A stretch of 7,803 nt of DNA. Origin: a virus (Duplodnaviria > Heunggongvirae > Uroviricota > Caudoviricetes). Below are positions 1,189 to 7,803 of this stretch, in pieces. The stretch is from positions 1 through 7,803 of IMG/VR virus record IMGVR_UViG_2667527898_000008, one strand, 5' to 3'. The first letter of the stretch is position 1. Each line of letters begins with the position of its first letter. Made by a program: the position numbers and the translations under genes. The notes below the pieces were generated by a model, which searched no databases, was not told the DNA's origin, and saw only the letters and a program-made list of their open reading frames with translations.

Positions 1189-1932
1189 ATGACACAGACT
1201 GAATCAGCGATTCTGGCGCATGCCCGGCGGTGTGCGCCTGCGGAGTCGTGCGGCTTCGTGATAAGCACGCCGGAGGGCAACCAGTACCAGCCGTGCGTGA
1301 ATATCTCTGCAGAGCCTGAGGCGTATTTTCGTATCGCACCGGAAGACTGGCTGCGGGCAGAGATGCAGGGGGAGATTGTGGCACTGGTCCACAGTCATCC
1401 CGGTGGACTGCCCTGGCTGAGCGAGGCCGACCGGCGGCTGCAGATAAAAAGCGCACTGCCCTGGTGGCTGGTCAGCCGGGGTGACATTCACAAATTCCGC
1501 TGCGTTCCGCACCTGACGGGACGGCGCTTTGCGCACGGGGTGACGGACTGTTACACGCTGTTCCGGGATGCATACCATCTGGCAGGCATTGATATGCCGG
1601 ATTTTCATCGCGGGGATGACTGGTGGTGCAACGGTCAGAACCTTTACCTGGACAATATGGAGGCAACGGGCTTTTACCGGGTGCCCCTGTCCTCTGCACT
1701 GCCGGGCGATATCCTGCTGTGCTGCTTCGGCGCATCGGTGGCTAATCATGCCGCCATTTACTGCGGCAACGGTGAGCTGCTTCACCATCTGCCTGAACAG
1801 CTGAGTAAACGGGAGAGGTATTCCGAAAAATGGCAACGACGAACGCATTCTGTCTGGCGTCACCGCCACTGGCACGCATCTGCCTTCACGGGGATTTACA
1901 ACGATTTGGCCGCCGCCTCAGCCTGTATGTGA
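1189..1932 (+). CDS. K: Tail tip assembly protein K (JAMM/MPN domain plus NlpC/P60-like domain)
   Basis: 247-aa ORF starting 5 nt after the L stop. A complete JAMM motif H-S-H-x7-S-x2-D is at residues 68-81 (HSHPGGLPWLSEAD, nt 1390-1431). An NlpC/P60-like candidate catalytic Cys is in TDCYTLF (C121, nt 1549-1551), with His residues downstream. The 3' 103 nt overlap gene I in another frame; the true 3' end or start may differ from this longest-ORF call. Confidence 0.87.
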   Translation: MTQTESAILAHARRCAPAESCGFVISTPEGNQYQPCVNISAEPEAYFRIAPEDWLRAEMQGEIVALVHSHPGGLPWLSEADRRLQIKSALPWWLVSRGDIHKFRCVPHLTGRRFAHGVTDCYTLFRDAYHLAGIDMPDFHRGDDWWCNGQNLYLDNMEATGFYRVPLSSALPGDILLCCFGASVANHAAIYCGNGELLHHLPEQLSKRERYSEKWQRRTHSVWRHRHWHASAFTGIYNDLAAASACM

Positions 1933-2510
1933 ACACGGCAGCGGAAGCCATCCGCGCACTGTCGATGCAGGTGCCGGGCTTTCGCCGTCAGATGAACGAA
2001 GGCTGGTACCAGATACGCATTGCCGGTGAGGATACGGCACCGGAGGCGGTGTATGCCCGCCTTCACGAACCACTGAGTGAGGGAACGGTTATCCATATTG
2101 TGCCGCGACTGGCCGGGGCCGGAAAGGGTGGACTGCAGATTGTGCTGGGGGCGGCAGCCATCGTGGGCTCTTTCCTCACTGCCGGTGCCTCGATGGCGTT
2201 ATGGGGTACAGCCCTGAGTGCCGGCGGTTTTTCTGCCACCACGATGCTGTTTTCACTGGGGGCCAGCATGATTCTGGGGGGTGTGGCCCAGATGCTGGCC
2301 CCGAAGGCAAAAACACCGGATTACCGCGCAACGGATAACGGCAGACAGAACACGTATTTTTCGTCACTGGACAACATGATTGCCCAGGGTAACCCGATGC
2401 CGGTGCCTTACGGGGAAATGCTGGTTGGCTCCCGCCGTATATCCCAGGACATCAGTACCCGTGATGAAGGCGGGTGCGGAAAGGTCGTGGTTATCGGGCG
2501 GCAGGGGTAA
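1830..2510 (+). CDS. I: Tail tip assembly protein I
   Basis: 226-aa ORF whose N-terminus (MATTNAFCLASPPLARICLHGDLQRF...) and Gly/Ala-rich hydrophobic middle match my recollection of lambda gpI. SD-like GGGAGAGG is at 1811-1818. It lies between K and J. Confidence 0.87.
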   Translation: MATTNAFCLASPPLARICLHGDLQRFGRRLSLYVNTAAEAIRALSMQVPGFRRQMNEGWYQIRIAGEDTAPEAVYARLHEPLSEGTVIHIVPRLAGAGKGGLQIVLGAAAIVGSFLTAGASMALWGTALSAGGFSATTMLFSLGASMILGGVAQMLAPKAKTPDYRATDNGRQNTYFSSLDNMIAQGNPMPVPYGEMLVGSRRISQDISTRDEGGCGKVVVIGRQG

Positions 2511-2517
2511 AAAGAAT

Positions 2518-2552
2518 AAAAAAAATCCCGCAGTGATCGCGGAGCTGCGGGG
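2518..2552 (-). terminator. Intrinsic (rho-independent) terminator for minus-strand transcription
   Basis: On the minus strand a GC-rich hairpin (2527-2533 CCCGCAG pairing with 2545-2551 CTGCGGG, 7 bp, possible extra G-U pair, 9-11 nt loop) is followed by eight U (plus-strand A8 at 2518-2525) and a further U-rich tail. On the plus strand there is no U tract after the hairpin, so it is unidirectional. Confidence 0.6.
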
Positions 2553-2612
2553 ACAGACAAAGATTAGAGTTAAGGAGTTGTTTTTGTTACTCGGGCAAAA
2601 AAACACTAACGC
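2518..2612 (-). ncRNA. Candidate small non-coding RNA (~95 nt) between promoter and terminator, antisense to the I-J intergenic part of the late transcript
   Basis: Defined only by the minus-strand promoter (2619-2646) and terminator (2518-2552). Predicted RNA: GCGUUAGUGUUUUUUUGCCCGAGUAACAAAAACAACUCCUUAACUCUAAUCUUUGUCUGUCCCCGCAGCUCCGCGAUCACUGCGGGAUUUUUUUU. It has no AUG and no purine-rich SD. A 5' stem is possible (UGUUUUU with AAAAACA), followed by a CU-rich single-stranded stretch containing CUCCUUA. No homology to a known RNA family was established. Confidence 0.4.
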
Positions 2613-2618
2613 AGCGAA

Positions 2619-2646
2619 ATTATACGCGCCACAGTCAGTTTGTGAA
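2619..2646 (-). promoter_or_regulatory. Sigma70-type promoter on the minus strand (-35 TTCACA, 16-bp spacer, -10 TATAAT)
   Basis: Minus-strand reading: TTCACA (plus 2641-2646), 16 bp, TATAAT (plus 2619-2624). The -10 is a perfect consensus and the -35 matches 5 of 6. Predicted start site is near plus coordinate 2611-2613. It lies in an AT-rich island flanked by GC-rich tail genes. Confidence 0.5.
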
Positions 2647-2718
2647 AATGTGAAGATATTCAGAATTTTTATGCCATTACCGGTTTTTACCAACAGGATT
2701 ATCGGTGGACATGAAAGA

Positions 2719-2754
2719 AAACCCCGGTATCTGCTGATACCGGGGTTTCTCTTT
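2719..2754. terminator. Perfect palindrome hairpin flanked by an A tract and a T tract; candidate bidirectional intrinsic terminator
   Basis: CCCCGGTATC (2722-2731), loop TGCT, GATACCGGGG (2736-2745) forms a 10-bp perfect stem, extendable to 13 bp with the flanking AAA and TTT. It is followed by TTTCTCTTT on the plus strand and preceded by AAAGAAAA, which gives a U-rich tail on the minus strand as well. Confidence 0.5.
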
Positions 2755-2851
2755 AGCATGGCAGAAATGTGTTTCATGCTTTTCGGGCGAAGGATATCCG
2801 ACTTCTGTACGGAATGGCAAGTGGCGGTTAATTTATTCAGGGGAAGGCTGT

Positions 2852-5800
2852 ATGGGAAAAGGTGGCGGTAAGGCACACACGCCTCGTGAGGCGAAGGATA
2901 ATCTCAAATCCACGCAGATGATGAGCGTGATTGATGCGGTTGGTGAGGGACCGATAGAAGGCCCGGTGAAGGGACTGCAGAGTATCCTGGTGAACAAAAC
3001 CCCGCTGACGGACACGGACGGTAATCCCGTGATACACGGTGTGACGGCGGTCTGGCGCGCCGGGGAGCAGGAGCAGACACCACCGGAAGGCTTTGAGTCC
3101 TCCGGAGCTGAAACTGTACTGGGCGTGGAAGTGACGAAGGCAAAACCGGTGACGCGCACCATTACGTCCGCGAACATTGACCGCCTGCGGGTTACCTTCG
3201 GGGTGCAGTCACTGGTGCAGACCACGTCAAAGGGTGACCGAAACCCGACATCCGTCCGCCTGCTGATTCAGTTACAGCGTAACGGTAACTGGGTGACAGA
3301 AAAGGATGTCACCATTAACGGCAAGACCACCTCGCAGTTTCTGGCGTCGGTGATTCTGGATAATCTGCCTCCCCGTCCTTTTAACATCCGGATGGTCCGG
3401 GAGACGGCGGACAGCACCACGGACCAGTTGCAGAACAGAACACTCTGGTCATCGTACACCGAAATCATCGATGTGAAACAGTGCTACCCGAACACGGCGA
3501 TTGTGGGGCTGCAGGTGGATGCGGAGCAGTTCGGTGGTCAGCAGATGACGGTGAACTACCATATCCGCGGTCGCATCATCCAGGTGCCGTCAAACTATGA
3601 CCCGGAAAAACGCACCTACAGCGGTATCTGGGACGGCAGTCTGAAACCGGCATACAGCAACAACCCGGCCTGGTGCCTGTGGGACATGCTGACTCACCCG
3701 CGCTACGGGATGGGAAAACGCCTGGGGGCGGCGGATGTGGACAAGTGGGCGCTGTATGCCATCGGGCAGTACTGCGACCAGACGGTCCCGGATGGTTTCG
3801 GGGGCACAGAGCCGCGGATGACCTTTAATGCGTACCTGGCACAACAGCGTAAGGCGTGGGACGTTCTCAGTGATTTCTGCTCGGCGATGCGCTGTATGCC
3901 GGTATGGAACGGCCAGACGCTGACGTTCGTTCAGGACCGCCCGTCGGATGTGGTGTGGCCGTACACCAACAGCGATGTGGTGGTGGATGATAACGGCGTG
4001 GGGTTCCGCTACAGCTTCAGTGCCCTGAAGGACCGGCACACGGCGGTGGAGGTGAATTACACCGACCCGCAGAACGGCTGGCAGACCTCCACGGAACTGG
4101 TGGAAGACCCGGAAGCCATACTGCGCTACGGACGCAATCTGCTGAAGATGGATGCGTTTGGCTGTACCAGCCGCGGTCAGGCTCACCGTGCAGGTCTGTG
4201 GGTGATAAAGACCGAACTGCTGGAAACGCAGACGGTGGACTTCACGCTCGGGTCACAGGGGCTGCGTCACACACCGGGTGACATTATTGAAATCTGTGAT
4301 AACGACTATGCCGGGACTATGACCGGCGGACGTATCCTGTCCATTGATGCTGCCACCCGCACCCTGACGCTGGACCGTGAGGTTACCCTGCCGGAGACAG
4401 GTACATCGGCGGTGAACCTGATTAACGGCAGCGGTAAGCCGGTGAGTGTGGACATCACCGCACACCCCGCGCCGGACCGGATACAGGTCAGTACCCTGCC
4501 TGATGGTGTGGAGACATACGGTGTGTGGGGACTCTCCCTGCCGTCACTGCGCCGTCGCCTGTTCCGCTGTGTCTCCATCCGGGAAAACACGGACGGCACC
4601 TTTGCCATCACGGCGGTGCAGCACGTACCGGAAAAAGAAGCCATTGTGGATAACGGAGCCCGCTTTGAGCCGCAGTCAGGCACCCTGAACAGCGTTATCC
4701 CACCGGCAGTACAGCACCTCACGGTGGAGGTGAGCGCAGCTGACAGCCAGTATCTGGCGCTGGCGAAATGGGACACGCCGAGGGTGGTGAAGGGCGTGCG
4801 CTTCAGTCTGCGCCTGACCAGTGGAAGCGATGAGAACAGCCGCCTGCTGACCACCGCCATCACTGCCGATACGGAGCACCGTTTCAGTGGCCTGCCTCTC
4901 GGGGAATACACCCTGACGGTCAGGGCGATAAACAGCTACGGCCAGCAGGGCGAACCCGCCACCACCACGTTCCGGATTAACGCACCGGCAGCGCCTGCCG
5001 GTGTTGAACTGACGCCGGGGTATTTTCAGATAACGGCAGTCCCGAAACTGACCATTTATGACCCGACGGTGCAGTTTGAGTTCTGGTTTTCGGAGGCAAA
5101 AATTGCAGACGCCGCACAGGTGGAAACCTCTGCCCGTTATCTGGGGACCGGCAGTCAGTGGAGTGTCTCCGGTCCGCACATTAAGCCCGGAAAGGATTTC
5201 TGGTTTTATGTGCGCAGCGTCAACCTGGTGGGTAAATCTGCTTTTGTGGAAGCCAGTGGACGGGCGAGCAATGATGCTGCGGGCTATCTGGAGTTTTTCC
5301 GGGAAAAGATAGGAAAAACACATCTGGCAGAGGCGCTGTGGGCAGAGATTGACAACAGCAAGCTGAAGGACGAGATGGCGGAAATGCAGACCACCATCAC
5401 AGAAACCCGCAATGAAATCACGCAGACGGTCAGTAAAACGCTGGAGGACCAGAGCGCCACCATACAGCAGATACAGCGCGTGCAGAAGGACACAAATGAT
5501 GACCTTGCTGCACTTTACATGCTGAAGGTACAGAAAACAAAAAATGGCATACCCTATGTTGCCGGTATTGGAGCGGGGATTGAGGATACTGATGGCCAGC
5601 CCCTGAGCAACATACTGCTGCTGGCTGACCGTATTGCGATGATTAACCCGGAGGACGGCAACACCACGCCGTTATTTGTGGCGCAGGGGAATCAGTTGTT
5701 CATGAACGATGTGTTCCTGAAGCGGCTGTTTGCGGTGAGTATCACCTCGTCCGGCAATCCCCCTACGTTCTCCCTGACGCCGGAAGGCAGGCTGACGGCC

Positions 5801-6382
5801 CGTAATGCGGATATCAGCGGACATATCAGTGCGAACTCGGGCACGCTGAATAATGTCGTGATAGCGGAGAACTGTACCATCAAAGGTACTCTGAGAGCGG
5901 AAAATATCATTGGCGATGTGGTGAAAACGCACAATGTCAGTCTTCCTGATCTCAGGGCTGCAGGGGAGCACAGACACGCGACAGAACGAACGGTTACTGT
6001 CATTGATGATCAGTCGTTTGACCGGAATATTGTTATCCCGCCGGTTTTTTATTCCGGTATTATCTACAAAGGAAGTGATGGTGACGGTGCGACCTCAATC
6101 TGTACGCTGACGGTGAGTGTGAATGATCGGGTGGTGTTCAGCAAAACCTCATCCATCGGTACCAGGCGTACGTCAGGGGGATACCCCGTTCAGGAAGACA
6201 CCATATATCCCGGGTCATCCACTCCGTTCAGCTATTTCATGAGGATGGCGTCAGGGGGAGGTGATGTCAGGATCAAGTTCCGGATTGAGGTCATCTATTA
6301 TGGAACTGCACCGGGTTTTATGACCACAGGGATACAGATCACAACGATGAAGGCGTCAGCTTCAGGATTTGTGGAAAGTTAA
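2852..6382 (+). CDS. J: Tail tip host-specificity protein J (central tail fibre, receptor binding)
   Basis: 1176-aa ORF. The N-terminus ([22 protein letters not shown]...) and long internal stretches (for example [36 protein letters not shown] and [33 protein letters not shown]) match my recollection of lambda gpJ. SD GGAAGG is 4 nt upstream of the ATG. Size and position after I fit. Confidence 0.95.
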
Positions 6383-6703
6383 TCCCGGACGATCGTGATT
6401 GCCGGAAGGAGACAAAAACCGCACAGTATGCGCGGGTGCCTTTGGCTGATGGCCGGAGGGAACACCTGAAAGCCTGATGTGAAAAGGCCCCGAGTCAACT
6501 TCAATGTTAACCCGAGGCCCTGATCCGTCTATCTTAAGCAAGTGGCAGGTTAGCGCCTCTCCGTAATAAGGAGCAAGTGCTGTGTCGCAAAAACCACCGT
6601 GATTTGTATCACTGTAGTGCTCATTATCTGGATCACCCACCGTTCACTGTGTGAATTCCGGTTCCGGATAGCACCTTTTTAATCCTGTAAACCACGATTT
6701 TTA

Positions 6704-6751: not shown

Positions 6752-7803
6752 ATGACAGTCAGAATATCGGGCGTGCTGAAGGACGGCACCGGGAAGCCGG
6801 TGCCGGGATGCACCATTGAACTGAAAGCCCTGCGCACCACGGAGACAGTGATTGTCACCACGGTGGCGCAGGGGCAGCCGGGGGAAACCGGCAGTTACAG
6901 TTTTGATGTGGAGCCGGGGTGGTACCGGGTGACGCTGAACACGGAAGGGTACGCCCCGTCGTATGTGGGTGACATTCTGGTGAAGGCGGATTCTGAGCCG
7001 GGAACGCTGAATAAATTTCTGATGGAACAGGATGAGGCGCAGTATTACCCGAAAGCGCTTGCAGAGCTGGAAGCGGTGGCAGCGGAAATCCTGAAGCGTG
7101 CTGAAGCGTCGGCGGCGAGTGCAGAGGAAGCGAAGAAACGGGCAGAGAATGCCCGGGGACCGGCGGGCGAGAAGGGGGACACAGGTCCACAGGGTGCCAC
7201 AGGGGCACAGGGACCAGCCGGGGCAACGGGGGCGGTCGGACCAAAAGGTGAGCCGGGGCCAAAGGGAGAACGGGGAGAAACAGGTCCACAGGGACCGAAG
7301 GGCGATAAAGGTGACCCGGGCGGACCGCCGGGGCCGAAAGGTGACACCGGCCCACGTGGAGAGGCCGGACCACCCGGACCACAGGGTCCGGCAGGGCAAA
7401 CCGGCCCGAAAGGGGATAAAGGTGAACCCGGCGCAACAGGTCCGGCAGGTCCCGCAGGCCCTCGGGGAGAAACCGGCCCCGCAGGTCCTGCGGGTCCCGC
7501 AGGCAGTGTCGCCAGTGTTCCGGATGCCAGCACATCACAGAAAGGTGTTGTACAGCTGAGCAGCGATACCAACAGCGATGATGAAACAAAAGCGGCAACC
7601 CCAAAGGCTGTGAAAGCGGTAATGGCAGAAGTGCAGGCAGCAAAAACGAAGGCAGAAGAGGCAGCAACCCGGGCAGCAGTCCCCGGACCGAAGGGGGACA
7701 GGGGGGAACCTGGCGCACCTGGTGTAGTGGGGCCCGCAGGCCCTCAGGGACCGGCTGGTGCAGCCGGAGCCAAAGGTGCCCCGGGGCCAAAAGGGGACAA
7801 AGG
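6752..7803 (+). CDS. stf: Side tail fibre protein with collagen-like Gly-X-Y repeats (5' part; 3' end lies outside the window)
   Basis: The frame is open from ATG 6752 to the window end (350 codons, checked by hand). It is absent from the ORF track only because it has no stop inside the window. The N-terminus ([26 protein letters not shown]...) resembles the lambda Stf N-terminus as I recall it. SD-like GGGGAAAA is upstream. Long Gly-X-Y tracts follow an Ala/Glu-rich helical segment. Confidence 0.85.
7157..7504 (+). repeat. Collagen-like Gly-X-Y coding repeat, tract 1 (about 38 triplets, residues 136-251 of Stf)
   Basis: Translation shows uninterrupted G-X-Y periodicity ([22 protein letters not shown]...) with a single one-residue register interruption at G190/G191 (nt 7319-7324). 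The GC-rich, Pro-coding DNA produces the spurious antisense ORFs 6855-7790 and 7045-7572. Confidence 0.85.
7685..7803 (+). repeat. Collagen-like Gly-X-Y coding repeat, tract 2 (continues beyond the window)
   Basis: [39 protein letters not shown]. It is separated from tract 1 by a 60-residue non-collagen linker ([60 protein letters not shown]). The 13-bp direct repeat CCCGCAGGCCCTC occurs at 7451-7463 and 7733-7745. Confidence 0.8.

Follow-up and report, generated by a model that had tools for sequence, protein, structure and literature searches.

The gap between the tail genes I and J of the lambdoid prophage analysed here contains a perfect palindrome, which raises the question of what a structure of this kind does inside an operon whose transcription continues into J. 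An earlier note on this DNA had taken the palindrome, together with a weaker hairpin beside it, for a two-way terminator or insulator just upstream of J, with a protein-binding site as the alternative. The window, i.e., the whole 7,803-nt stretch that was analysed, has on its plus strand the tail genes of a lambda-type operon, in which M (156-485), L (485-1183) and K (1189-1932) are followed by I and J, and its segment 2505-2855 was 100% identical to a prophage in E. coli UPEC-245U/190328, where the RefSeq gene names match. As summarized in Table 1, the I-J gap (341 bp) was found to consist of two parts, namely the sRNA gene pasB on the minus strand and a separate 176-bp unit containing the palindrome. 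The earlier description of its position as just upstream of J needs one qualification, in that 103 nt separate the palindrome from the start codon of J (2852).

Table 1. Features of the I-J gap and its borders, in window positions.
Feature	Position	Strand	Basis
I, tail assembly gene	1830..2510	+	upstream border of I-J gap
pasB, published Hfq-dependent prophage sRNA	2519..2612	-	Northern probe match, E2348/69 alignment
pasB terminator hairpin then T8 (plus-strand A8, 2518-2525)	2527..2551	-	terminator scan, repeat search, energy
pasB promoter TTCACA, 16 nt, TATAAT	2619..2646	-	11/12 matches; conserved in E2348/69
176-bp mosaic unit with palindrome, between region common to pasB loci and J start	2676..2851		breakpoint, genome matches
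Full predicted bidirectional intrinsic terminator: A-tract, stem-loop, T-tract	2712..2754	both	two-strand score, folds
Palindrome, 13-bp perfect arms + 4-nt loop	2719..2748	both	inverted-repeat search, hairpin energy
Second hairpin AGCATG (2755-2760)...CATGCT (2775-2780), then TTTT (2781-2784)	2755..2784	+	repeat search, energy
Promoter-like match TTGCCA, 18 nt, TATCCT (hypothetical)	2791..2820	-	9/12 matches = chance level
J, tail tip / host specificity gene	2852..6382	+	downstream border of I-J gap

The two arms of the palindrome, AAACCCCGGTATC (2719-2731) and GATACCGGGGTTT (2736-2748), were 100% complementary and flanked by GAAAGAAAA on the left and TTTCTCTTT on the right, in full agreement with the perfect repeat, 4-nt loop, A-rich left flank and T-rich right flank described before. 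Elsewhere in the 7.8-kb window no perfect inverted repeat was longer than 9 bp, which makes these 13 bp the maximum. When the whole window was shuffled 200 times with dinucleotides preserved, the longest inverted repeat had 11 bp, and none reached 12 bp. Folding of 2700-2800, which the earlier note had put forward as a check, gave -39.4 kcal/mol for the plus strand (z -4.35) and -36.7 kcal/mol for the minus strand (z -5.83), values equalled in 0/200 shuffles in either case, and the folds bore out the predicted structure on both strands, with the stem extended by pairing between the A-run and the U-run. An imperfect repeat at 2678-2688 (TACCGGTTTTT) was 82% complementary to 2719-2729 of the left arm; it was considered as a possible antiterminator and rejected as far too weak against a stem of -19 kcal/mol.

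The palindrome has the anatomy of an intrinsic terminator, with a GC-rich 10-bp core stem (CCCCGGTATC/GATACCGGGG, 2722-2745), a 4-nt loop and a U-rich tract 3' of the stem. Because the A-run flanks the stem, the minus strand likewise reads as the stem followed by UUUUCUUUC; the A-tract mirrors the U-tract, and both strands present a stem with a U-tail, as is expected of a bidirectional terminator. We scored both orientations by combining ViennaRNA energies, a T-weighted tail score and the discriminant of d'Aubenton-Carafa (1990), and obtained +22 for the plus strand (-19.1 kcal/mol, tail TTTCTCTTT with 6 T in the first 8) and +34 for the minus strand (-18.5 kcal/mol, tail TTTTCTTTC with 7 T in 8), of which only the relative values are meaningful, since the discriminant was paired with modern energies. 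The predicted anatomy was thus complete and the score positive on both strands, in line with the two-way terminator structure suggested earlier. A terminator scan of the window listed the palindrome in the minus orientation only (2749 to 2718), because A/T pairs were taken as part of the stem, which left too few T after it in the plus orientation. As for the weaker hairpin, it is indeed present and followed by TTTT as the earlier note had stated, but with its 6-bp stem, 14-nt loop, energy of -7.3 kcal/mol and negative score on both strands it appeared too weak for a terminator, and is at best a minor back-up on the plus strand.

Next to the 176-bp unit, the gap holds pasB. The Northern probe for PasB, AATCCCGCAGTGATCGCGGAGCT (Table S6, PMC8550237), matched the plus strand exactly at 2524-2546, and PasB is therefore a minus-strand transcript here. 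The annotated 83-nt PasB of E2348/69 (1466343 to 1466261) aligned to about 2597 to 2519, while the pasB promoter predicts a start near 2612. The minus-strand promoter pointed out in the earlier note is thus real and is that of pasB, a gene which had gone unrecognised there; pasB had no RefSeq feature in the records inspected. PasB has been reported as Hfq-dependent and abundant in EPEC E2348/69, with a base mean of 482-1,082 as compared with 5-15 for I and J (PMC8550237), and a 2026 preprint places it inside a phage structural-gene operon and describes it as often the sole Pas sRNA of a genome (10.64898/2026.05.13.724894). The gap accordingly holds a published virulence-associated sRNA gene that lacks RefSeq annotation. 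No EHEC homologue of PasB is listed in PMC8550237. In EHEC Sakai, the I-J gap of Sp15 (NC_002695.2 2902000-2903500) contains EcOnc22, an RNA of ~85 nt that is destabilised without Hfq (Table S2, PMC4104026), and this is the position of the PasB homologue, given the shift of ~+128 bp between NC_002695.1 and NC_002695.2. Its homologues EcOnc23 and EcOnc24 are listed for the I-J gaps of Sakai Sp14 and Sp11 (PMC4104026).

The palindrome lies outside both the PasB transcript and its promoter, which reaches 2646, and stands ~70 nt upstream of that promoter. In E2348/69, the strain in which PasB was defined, the palindrome was absent and another hairpin occupied its place. The earlier note had seen the main job of the structure in stopping transcripts that are not antiterminated, for example in keeping antisense transcription that leaves J away from the minus-strand promoter; however, the hairpin of E2348/69 is predicted to terminate on the plus strand only, and PasB is expressed strongly in that strain, so that shielding of pasB is not a general requirement. 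In the palindrome variant it may be a side benefit.

Comparison of related loci showed where the unit with the palindrome begins. E2348/69 was near-identical to the window up to ~2673 and then diverged fully, with J following after only ~75 nt, which places the breakpoint at about 2673-2678, and the Stx phages among the phage records had only 2519-2675 in common with the window. Of 5,426 complete E. coli genomes, 1,445 contained the segment 2676-2851 itself at 95-100% identity, the median being one place per genome; the palindrome was present on 111 IMG/VR contigs, with identical flanks in all of them. The palindrome thus shows strong conservation. Every E. coli genome copy of the palindrome that was inspected sits in the gap before J, and as all examined copies have this one context, a dispersed REP-like element was excluded. 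In ~150 copies, the stem was invariant save for three rare uncompensated single-base variants, with small changes in the T-run, and a pattern with anchored flanks and a free stem retrieved the same set of contigs; no covariation test applies to so nearly invariant a stem. The adjoining pasB segment varied between 60% and 100% identity. Furthermore, the 176-bp unit occurred with two pasB alleles (u0 and u1) and one pasB allele with two units (u1 and u5), and since these pairings vary, the unit assorts as a module, whichever pasB allele adjoins it. One contig whose left flank differed was at first a candidate for a module boundary and was discarded as an IS3-family insertion at ~2700; in some contigs, such an insertion ~15 nt upstream of the palindrome parts it from pasB. 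The 176-bp unit was absent from the three Sakai regions examined, where the hairpin of Sp9 and Sp15 is of the other type and J is missing from Sp6. It carried no annotated feature in 39 of 40 sampled records, a full-text literature search for the palindrome sequence gave no match, and the RIL-seq tables of E2348/69, a strain that itself lacks the palindrome, list no feature between pasB and J.

Several further candidates and signals in the window were also inspected. Two open reading frames of 163 codons (2380-2871, plus) and 170 codons (2364-2876, minus) cross the entire non-coding I-J gap, which is probably due to chance, helped by the palindromes. Two small ones (plus strand, 67 codons from 2671; minus strand, 47 codons from 2820) run across the hairpin without ribosome-binding sites and are unannotated in 39 of 40 sampled genomes, and were dismissed as genes. 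An anti-sRNA of the AgvB/AsxR type was likewise rejected, as those genes occupy the PR' cargo site and not the tail operon, and no Rfam match was obtained. Downstream of J, a sub-threshold Rfam match to the sok antitoxin RNA (6434-6593, plus; 32.5 bits, E 2e-4, gathering score 59) may represent a hok/sok-like remnant. A minus-strand terminator-like hairpin, CCGCGCATACTGTGCGG followed by TTTTTG, lies at 6419-6435 directly past the end of J, and Gly-X-Y collagen-like coding potential with GPAGP runs in the translated reading frames extends over ~7045-7600, where a tail fibre gene probably runs off the window.

The earlier note had missed that hairpins before J are a conserved feature of such tail operons. 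We retrieved IMG/VR contigs by means of three different J N-termini and searched each distinct sequence lying between I and J for sites with a stem of 5 bp or more that includes 3 or more G-C pairs, a loop of 3-8 nt, and 5 or more T in 8. A plus-strand hairpin with a T-run was present in 101 of 104 distinct gaps, the copies not being phylogenetically independent, whereas shuffled sequences lead one to expect ~0.8 sites per 700 nt with both strands summed. All gap types contributed: 27/28 lambda-type gaps (59-66 nt), 34/35 phi80/HK97-type gaps (38-52 nt) with at least 6 unrelated stems, 25/26 pasB gaps of ~240 bp with the stem CAGGCAYCC, and 15/15 palindrome-type gaps (~342 bp), as against 86/89 for the other three types together. 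In all, ~10 unrelated stems were distinguished (CCGCC, CAGGCAYCC, CCCCGGTATC, GGTGC, CCCAGC, GGGCGC, GGCCACC, GGCCGC, GGCGCC and GAGCCGCC). In lambda itself, the 60-bp gap (15445-15504) contains AAACCGCC-TGCG-GGCGGTTT followed by TGTCATTT, which can also be written as GAAACCGCC-TGCG-GGCGGTTT followed by TGTCATTT, and the lambda record shows no feature overlapping 15350-15600 besides the I and J coding sequences. Neither that record nor the searchable literature was found to describe a conserved hairpin before J. In the phi80/HK97 type, the T-run abuts the ATG of J, and a separate Shine-Dalgarno sequence is absent.

Other relatives differ in what they hold between the two genes. A Providencia phage has no I-J gap at all, and inserted genes include an HNH gene in mEp021, a minus-strand Cu,Zn superoxide dismutase gene (sodC) between pasB and J in an 851-bp IMG/VR variant, and a plus-strand lipoprotein-like ORF in a 472-bp IMG/VR variant without pasB; because of the variants with sodC or the lipoprotein-like ORF, we regard the gap as a cargo insertion site. 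A scan of genome contigs with the J N-terminus yielded 5 loci, and of the two examined, the one in Shigella flexneri had a lambda-type gap and the one on a Buttiauxella contig no obvious hairpin. In the E2348-type hairpin, covariation was limited to a single compensatory change, C-G to U-A, plus a wobble; 58/500 shuffles equalled this, and it is not significant. Since the sequence at this position has been replaced repeatedly while the design was kept on the strand of the late transcript, we consider that selection acts on the combination of a stem and a T-run. One possibility suggested by this is that J is expressed under a deliberate antitermination gate; another is segmentation of the late mRNA at the I/J junction. 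With respect to the minus strand, the hairpins of the lambda, E2348/Sp9, phi80 and cargo-ORF types scored positive on the plus and negative on the minus strand, and a minus-strand terminator besides that of pasB itself was confined to the palindrome type (14/15 gaps).

On the basis of the observed anatomy, thermodynamics, scores on the two strands, positional conservation over unrelated hairpins and identity of the neighbouring sRNA gene, the palindrome is probably an intrinsic terminator, predicted for both directions, which serves as this lineage's version of the conserved I/J-junction hairpin. Termination itself and the choice of transcripts affected are what we infer from these data. On the plus strand, polymerase that was not modified by Q at PR' would stop at the palindrome before reaching J, and in a lysogen stray transcription of the tail genes would be halted short of J and the genes beyond. 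The promoter scan revealed no plus-strand promoter between I and the palindrome, and the plus-strand transcripts to be stopped are hence hypothetical and of low level. The Q-modified late complex, by contrast, would pass through: in lambda, loading of Q makes the RNA exit channel narrower and blocks the formation of terminator hairpins (PMC9388147), and late transcription should for this reason read past the palindrome, as the earlier note had also held in agreement with the published mechanism. In the resulting read-through mRNA, the hairpin might additionally shield the upstream segment from 3' exonucleases. On the minus strand, any polymerase arriving in antisense from J would be stopped ~70 nt short of the pasB promoter. 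Taken together, the palindrome is real, non-random and well conserved, and is probably an unannotated member of the class of intrinsic terminators and not a new kind of element.

One property that a terminator as such leaves unexplained is the distance to J, which is 103 nt for the palindrome as compared with 0-45 nt for the analogous hairpins, an extra 100 nt. A possible but rather doubtful explanation is that the 176-bp unit constitutes a second, undescribed minus-strand sRNA gene in tandem with pasB, for which the palindrome would mainly work on the minus strand. In the layout tentatively envisaged, a promoter at 2820-2791 would direct a start near 2784 and give an RNA of ~74 nt ending at 2711, and its putative parts, of similarly limited likelihood, would be a hairpin at the 5' end (2780-2755), a short linker rich in A and G, and a terminator/Hfq-binding module made up of the palindrome and its U-tail. 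This proposal would account for both the 100 nt that are extra relative to the E2348 type and the unusual minus-strand strength, and the palindrome type is the sole gap variant having a strong minus-strand terminator beyond that of pasB. Promoter, hairpin and terminator together would occupy ~135 of the 176 nt, and 2711-2784 on the minus strand folds as two hairpins (-31.9 kcal/mol, z -7.3), with the 5' hairpin, a single-stranded UAAAGAGA linker and a terminator ending in UUUUCUUUC, although the palindrome alone supplies most of that z-score. The I-J gap takes up minus-strand cassettes elsewhere, as seen for pasB and for sodC in the 851-bp variant, and clustering of prophage sRNA genes has been described (PMC4104026). 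On the other hand, the promoter matches at only 9/12, a value at chance level for the scan, and its -10 box, TATCCT, is poor; in addition, no Rfam family scored above its threshold, the best matches of Rfam 15 over 2640-2790 reaching 12-22 bits against gathering thresholds of 39-114. Conservation cannot single out the promoter either, because the whole 176-bp unit is invariant.

Three further explanations were weighed. The hairpin might fail to terminate to any useful extent and act on the RNA level instead, as a barrier to 3' exonucleases or a processing site in the late transcript, which we regard as unlikely; the corollary that mRNA segments proximal to I and to J would gain different stabilities is equally unlikely. 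What speaks for such a role is that a Q-modified complex should ignore the hairpin during lytic growth (PMC9388147) and yet nearly every lineage keeps one, and the phi80-type T-run abutting the J start codon hints at a link to J expression, but a plain stabiliser needs no T-run, and the T-run has been kept beside ~10 unrelated stems. An RNA-level role can also coexist with termination. Less likely still is a functionless relic, namely a terminator left over from a decayed cargo gene between pasB and J that hitch-hikes with J. Cargo genes with their own terminators do occur in other gap variants (sodC on the minus strand and the lipoprotein-like ORF on the plus strand), and the 176-bp unit has no relatives outside the I-J context. 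However, a plus-strand hairpin is the rule at I/J even where no cargo gene is present, and the stem has been kept perfect in ~1,450 genomes and 111 viral contigs beside a pasB segment of 60%-100% identity; because of this perfect conservation beside a variable neighbour, a pure relic is improbable. The protein-binding alternative, i.e., an operator for a dimeric protein, was found very hard to sustain. A dimer could recognise a dyad of this kind, with its perfect 13-bp arms, but GC-rich arms placed between an A-run and a T-run are the anatomy of a terminator, no regulator gene lies nearby, and no second copy of the palindrome occurs in the window or in other contexts. In particular, the ~10 unrelated hairpins found at the equivalent position in other lambdoid phages share a stem and a T-run and no common sequence, which disfavours an operator.

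A predicted terminator thus remains our preferred interpretation of the palindrome, which by itself looks like an ordinary terminator hairpin; its value lies in the pasB context, in the conserved I/J hairpin and in the lead to a second sRNA. A terminator-like hairpin before the host-range gene J has been kept over lambda, phi80/HK97-type and Stx-phage relatives despite the turnover of its sequence. The carriers of the palindrome unit, ~1,450 sequenced strains, include UPEC, O157:H7, O111 and ST131 isolates, among them UPEC-245U/190328 (NZ_CP049845) and O157:H7 FRIK2455, and the predicted minus-strand terminator specific to the palindrome type provides a cheap and testable lead to a second sRNA beside pasB; if such an sRNA exists, about a quarter of complete E. 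coli genomes would have a two-sRNA cassette between I and J.

Among the known systems, the closest in anatomy are the bidirectional Rho-independent terminators of E. coli (TransTermHP, PMC1852404; 10.1101/2022.10.23.513370), which likewise comprise a GC-rich stem, an A-run and a T-run. The classic ones lie between convergent genes, whereas here the plus-strand late operon continues into J and the minus side offers only the 9/12 promoter match at 2820-2791, its transcript being hypothetical. In position, the palindrome corresponds to the I-J hairpin of lambda and to its phi80/HK97 and pasB counterparts, which occupy the same place in the tail operon and have a stem and T-run on the strand of the late transcript. 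It is unrelated in sequence to these hairpins, its stem exceeds theirs in length and strength, and it is the sole one scoring on the minus strand as well; the lambda hairpin is itself unannotated in its GenBank record. In genomic context, it shares its intergenic gap with the PasB locus (PMC8550237; 10.64898/2026.05.13.724894) and with EcOnc22/23/24 of EHEC Sakai (PMC4104026). An insulator role of the kind demonstrated for the terminators of Tn916 (PMC11658703) is one that we infer for the palindrome, which would follow the same logic as these terminators and the Q-lambda system (PMC9388147), in that the downstream genes stay silent unless the polymerase carries an antiterminator.
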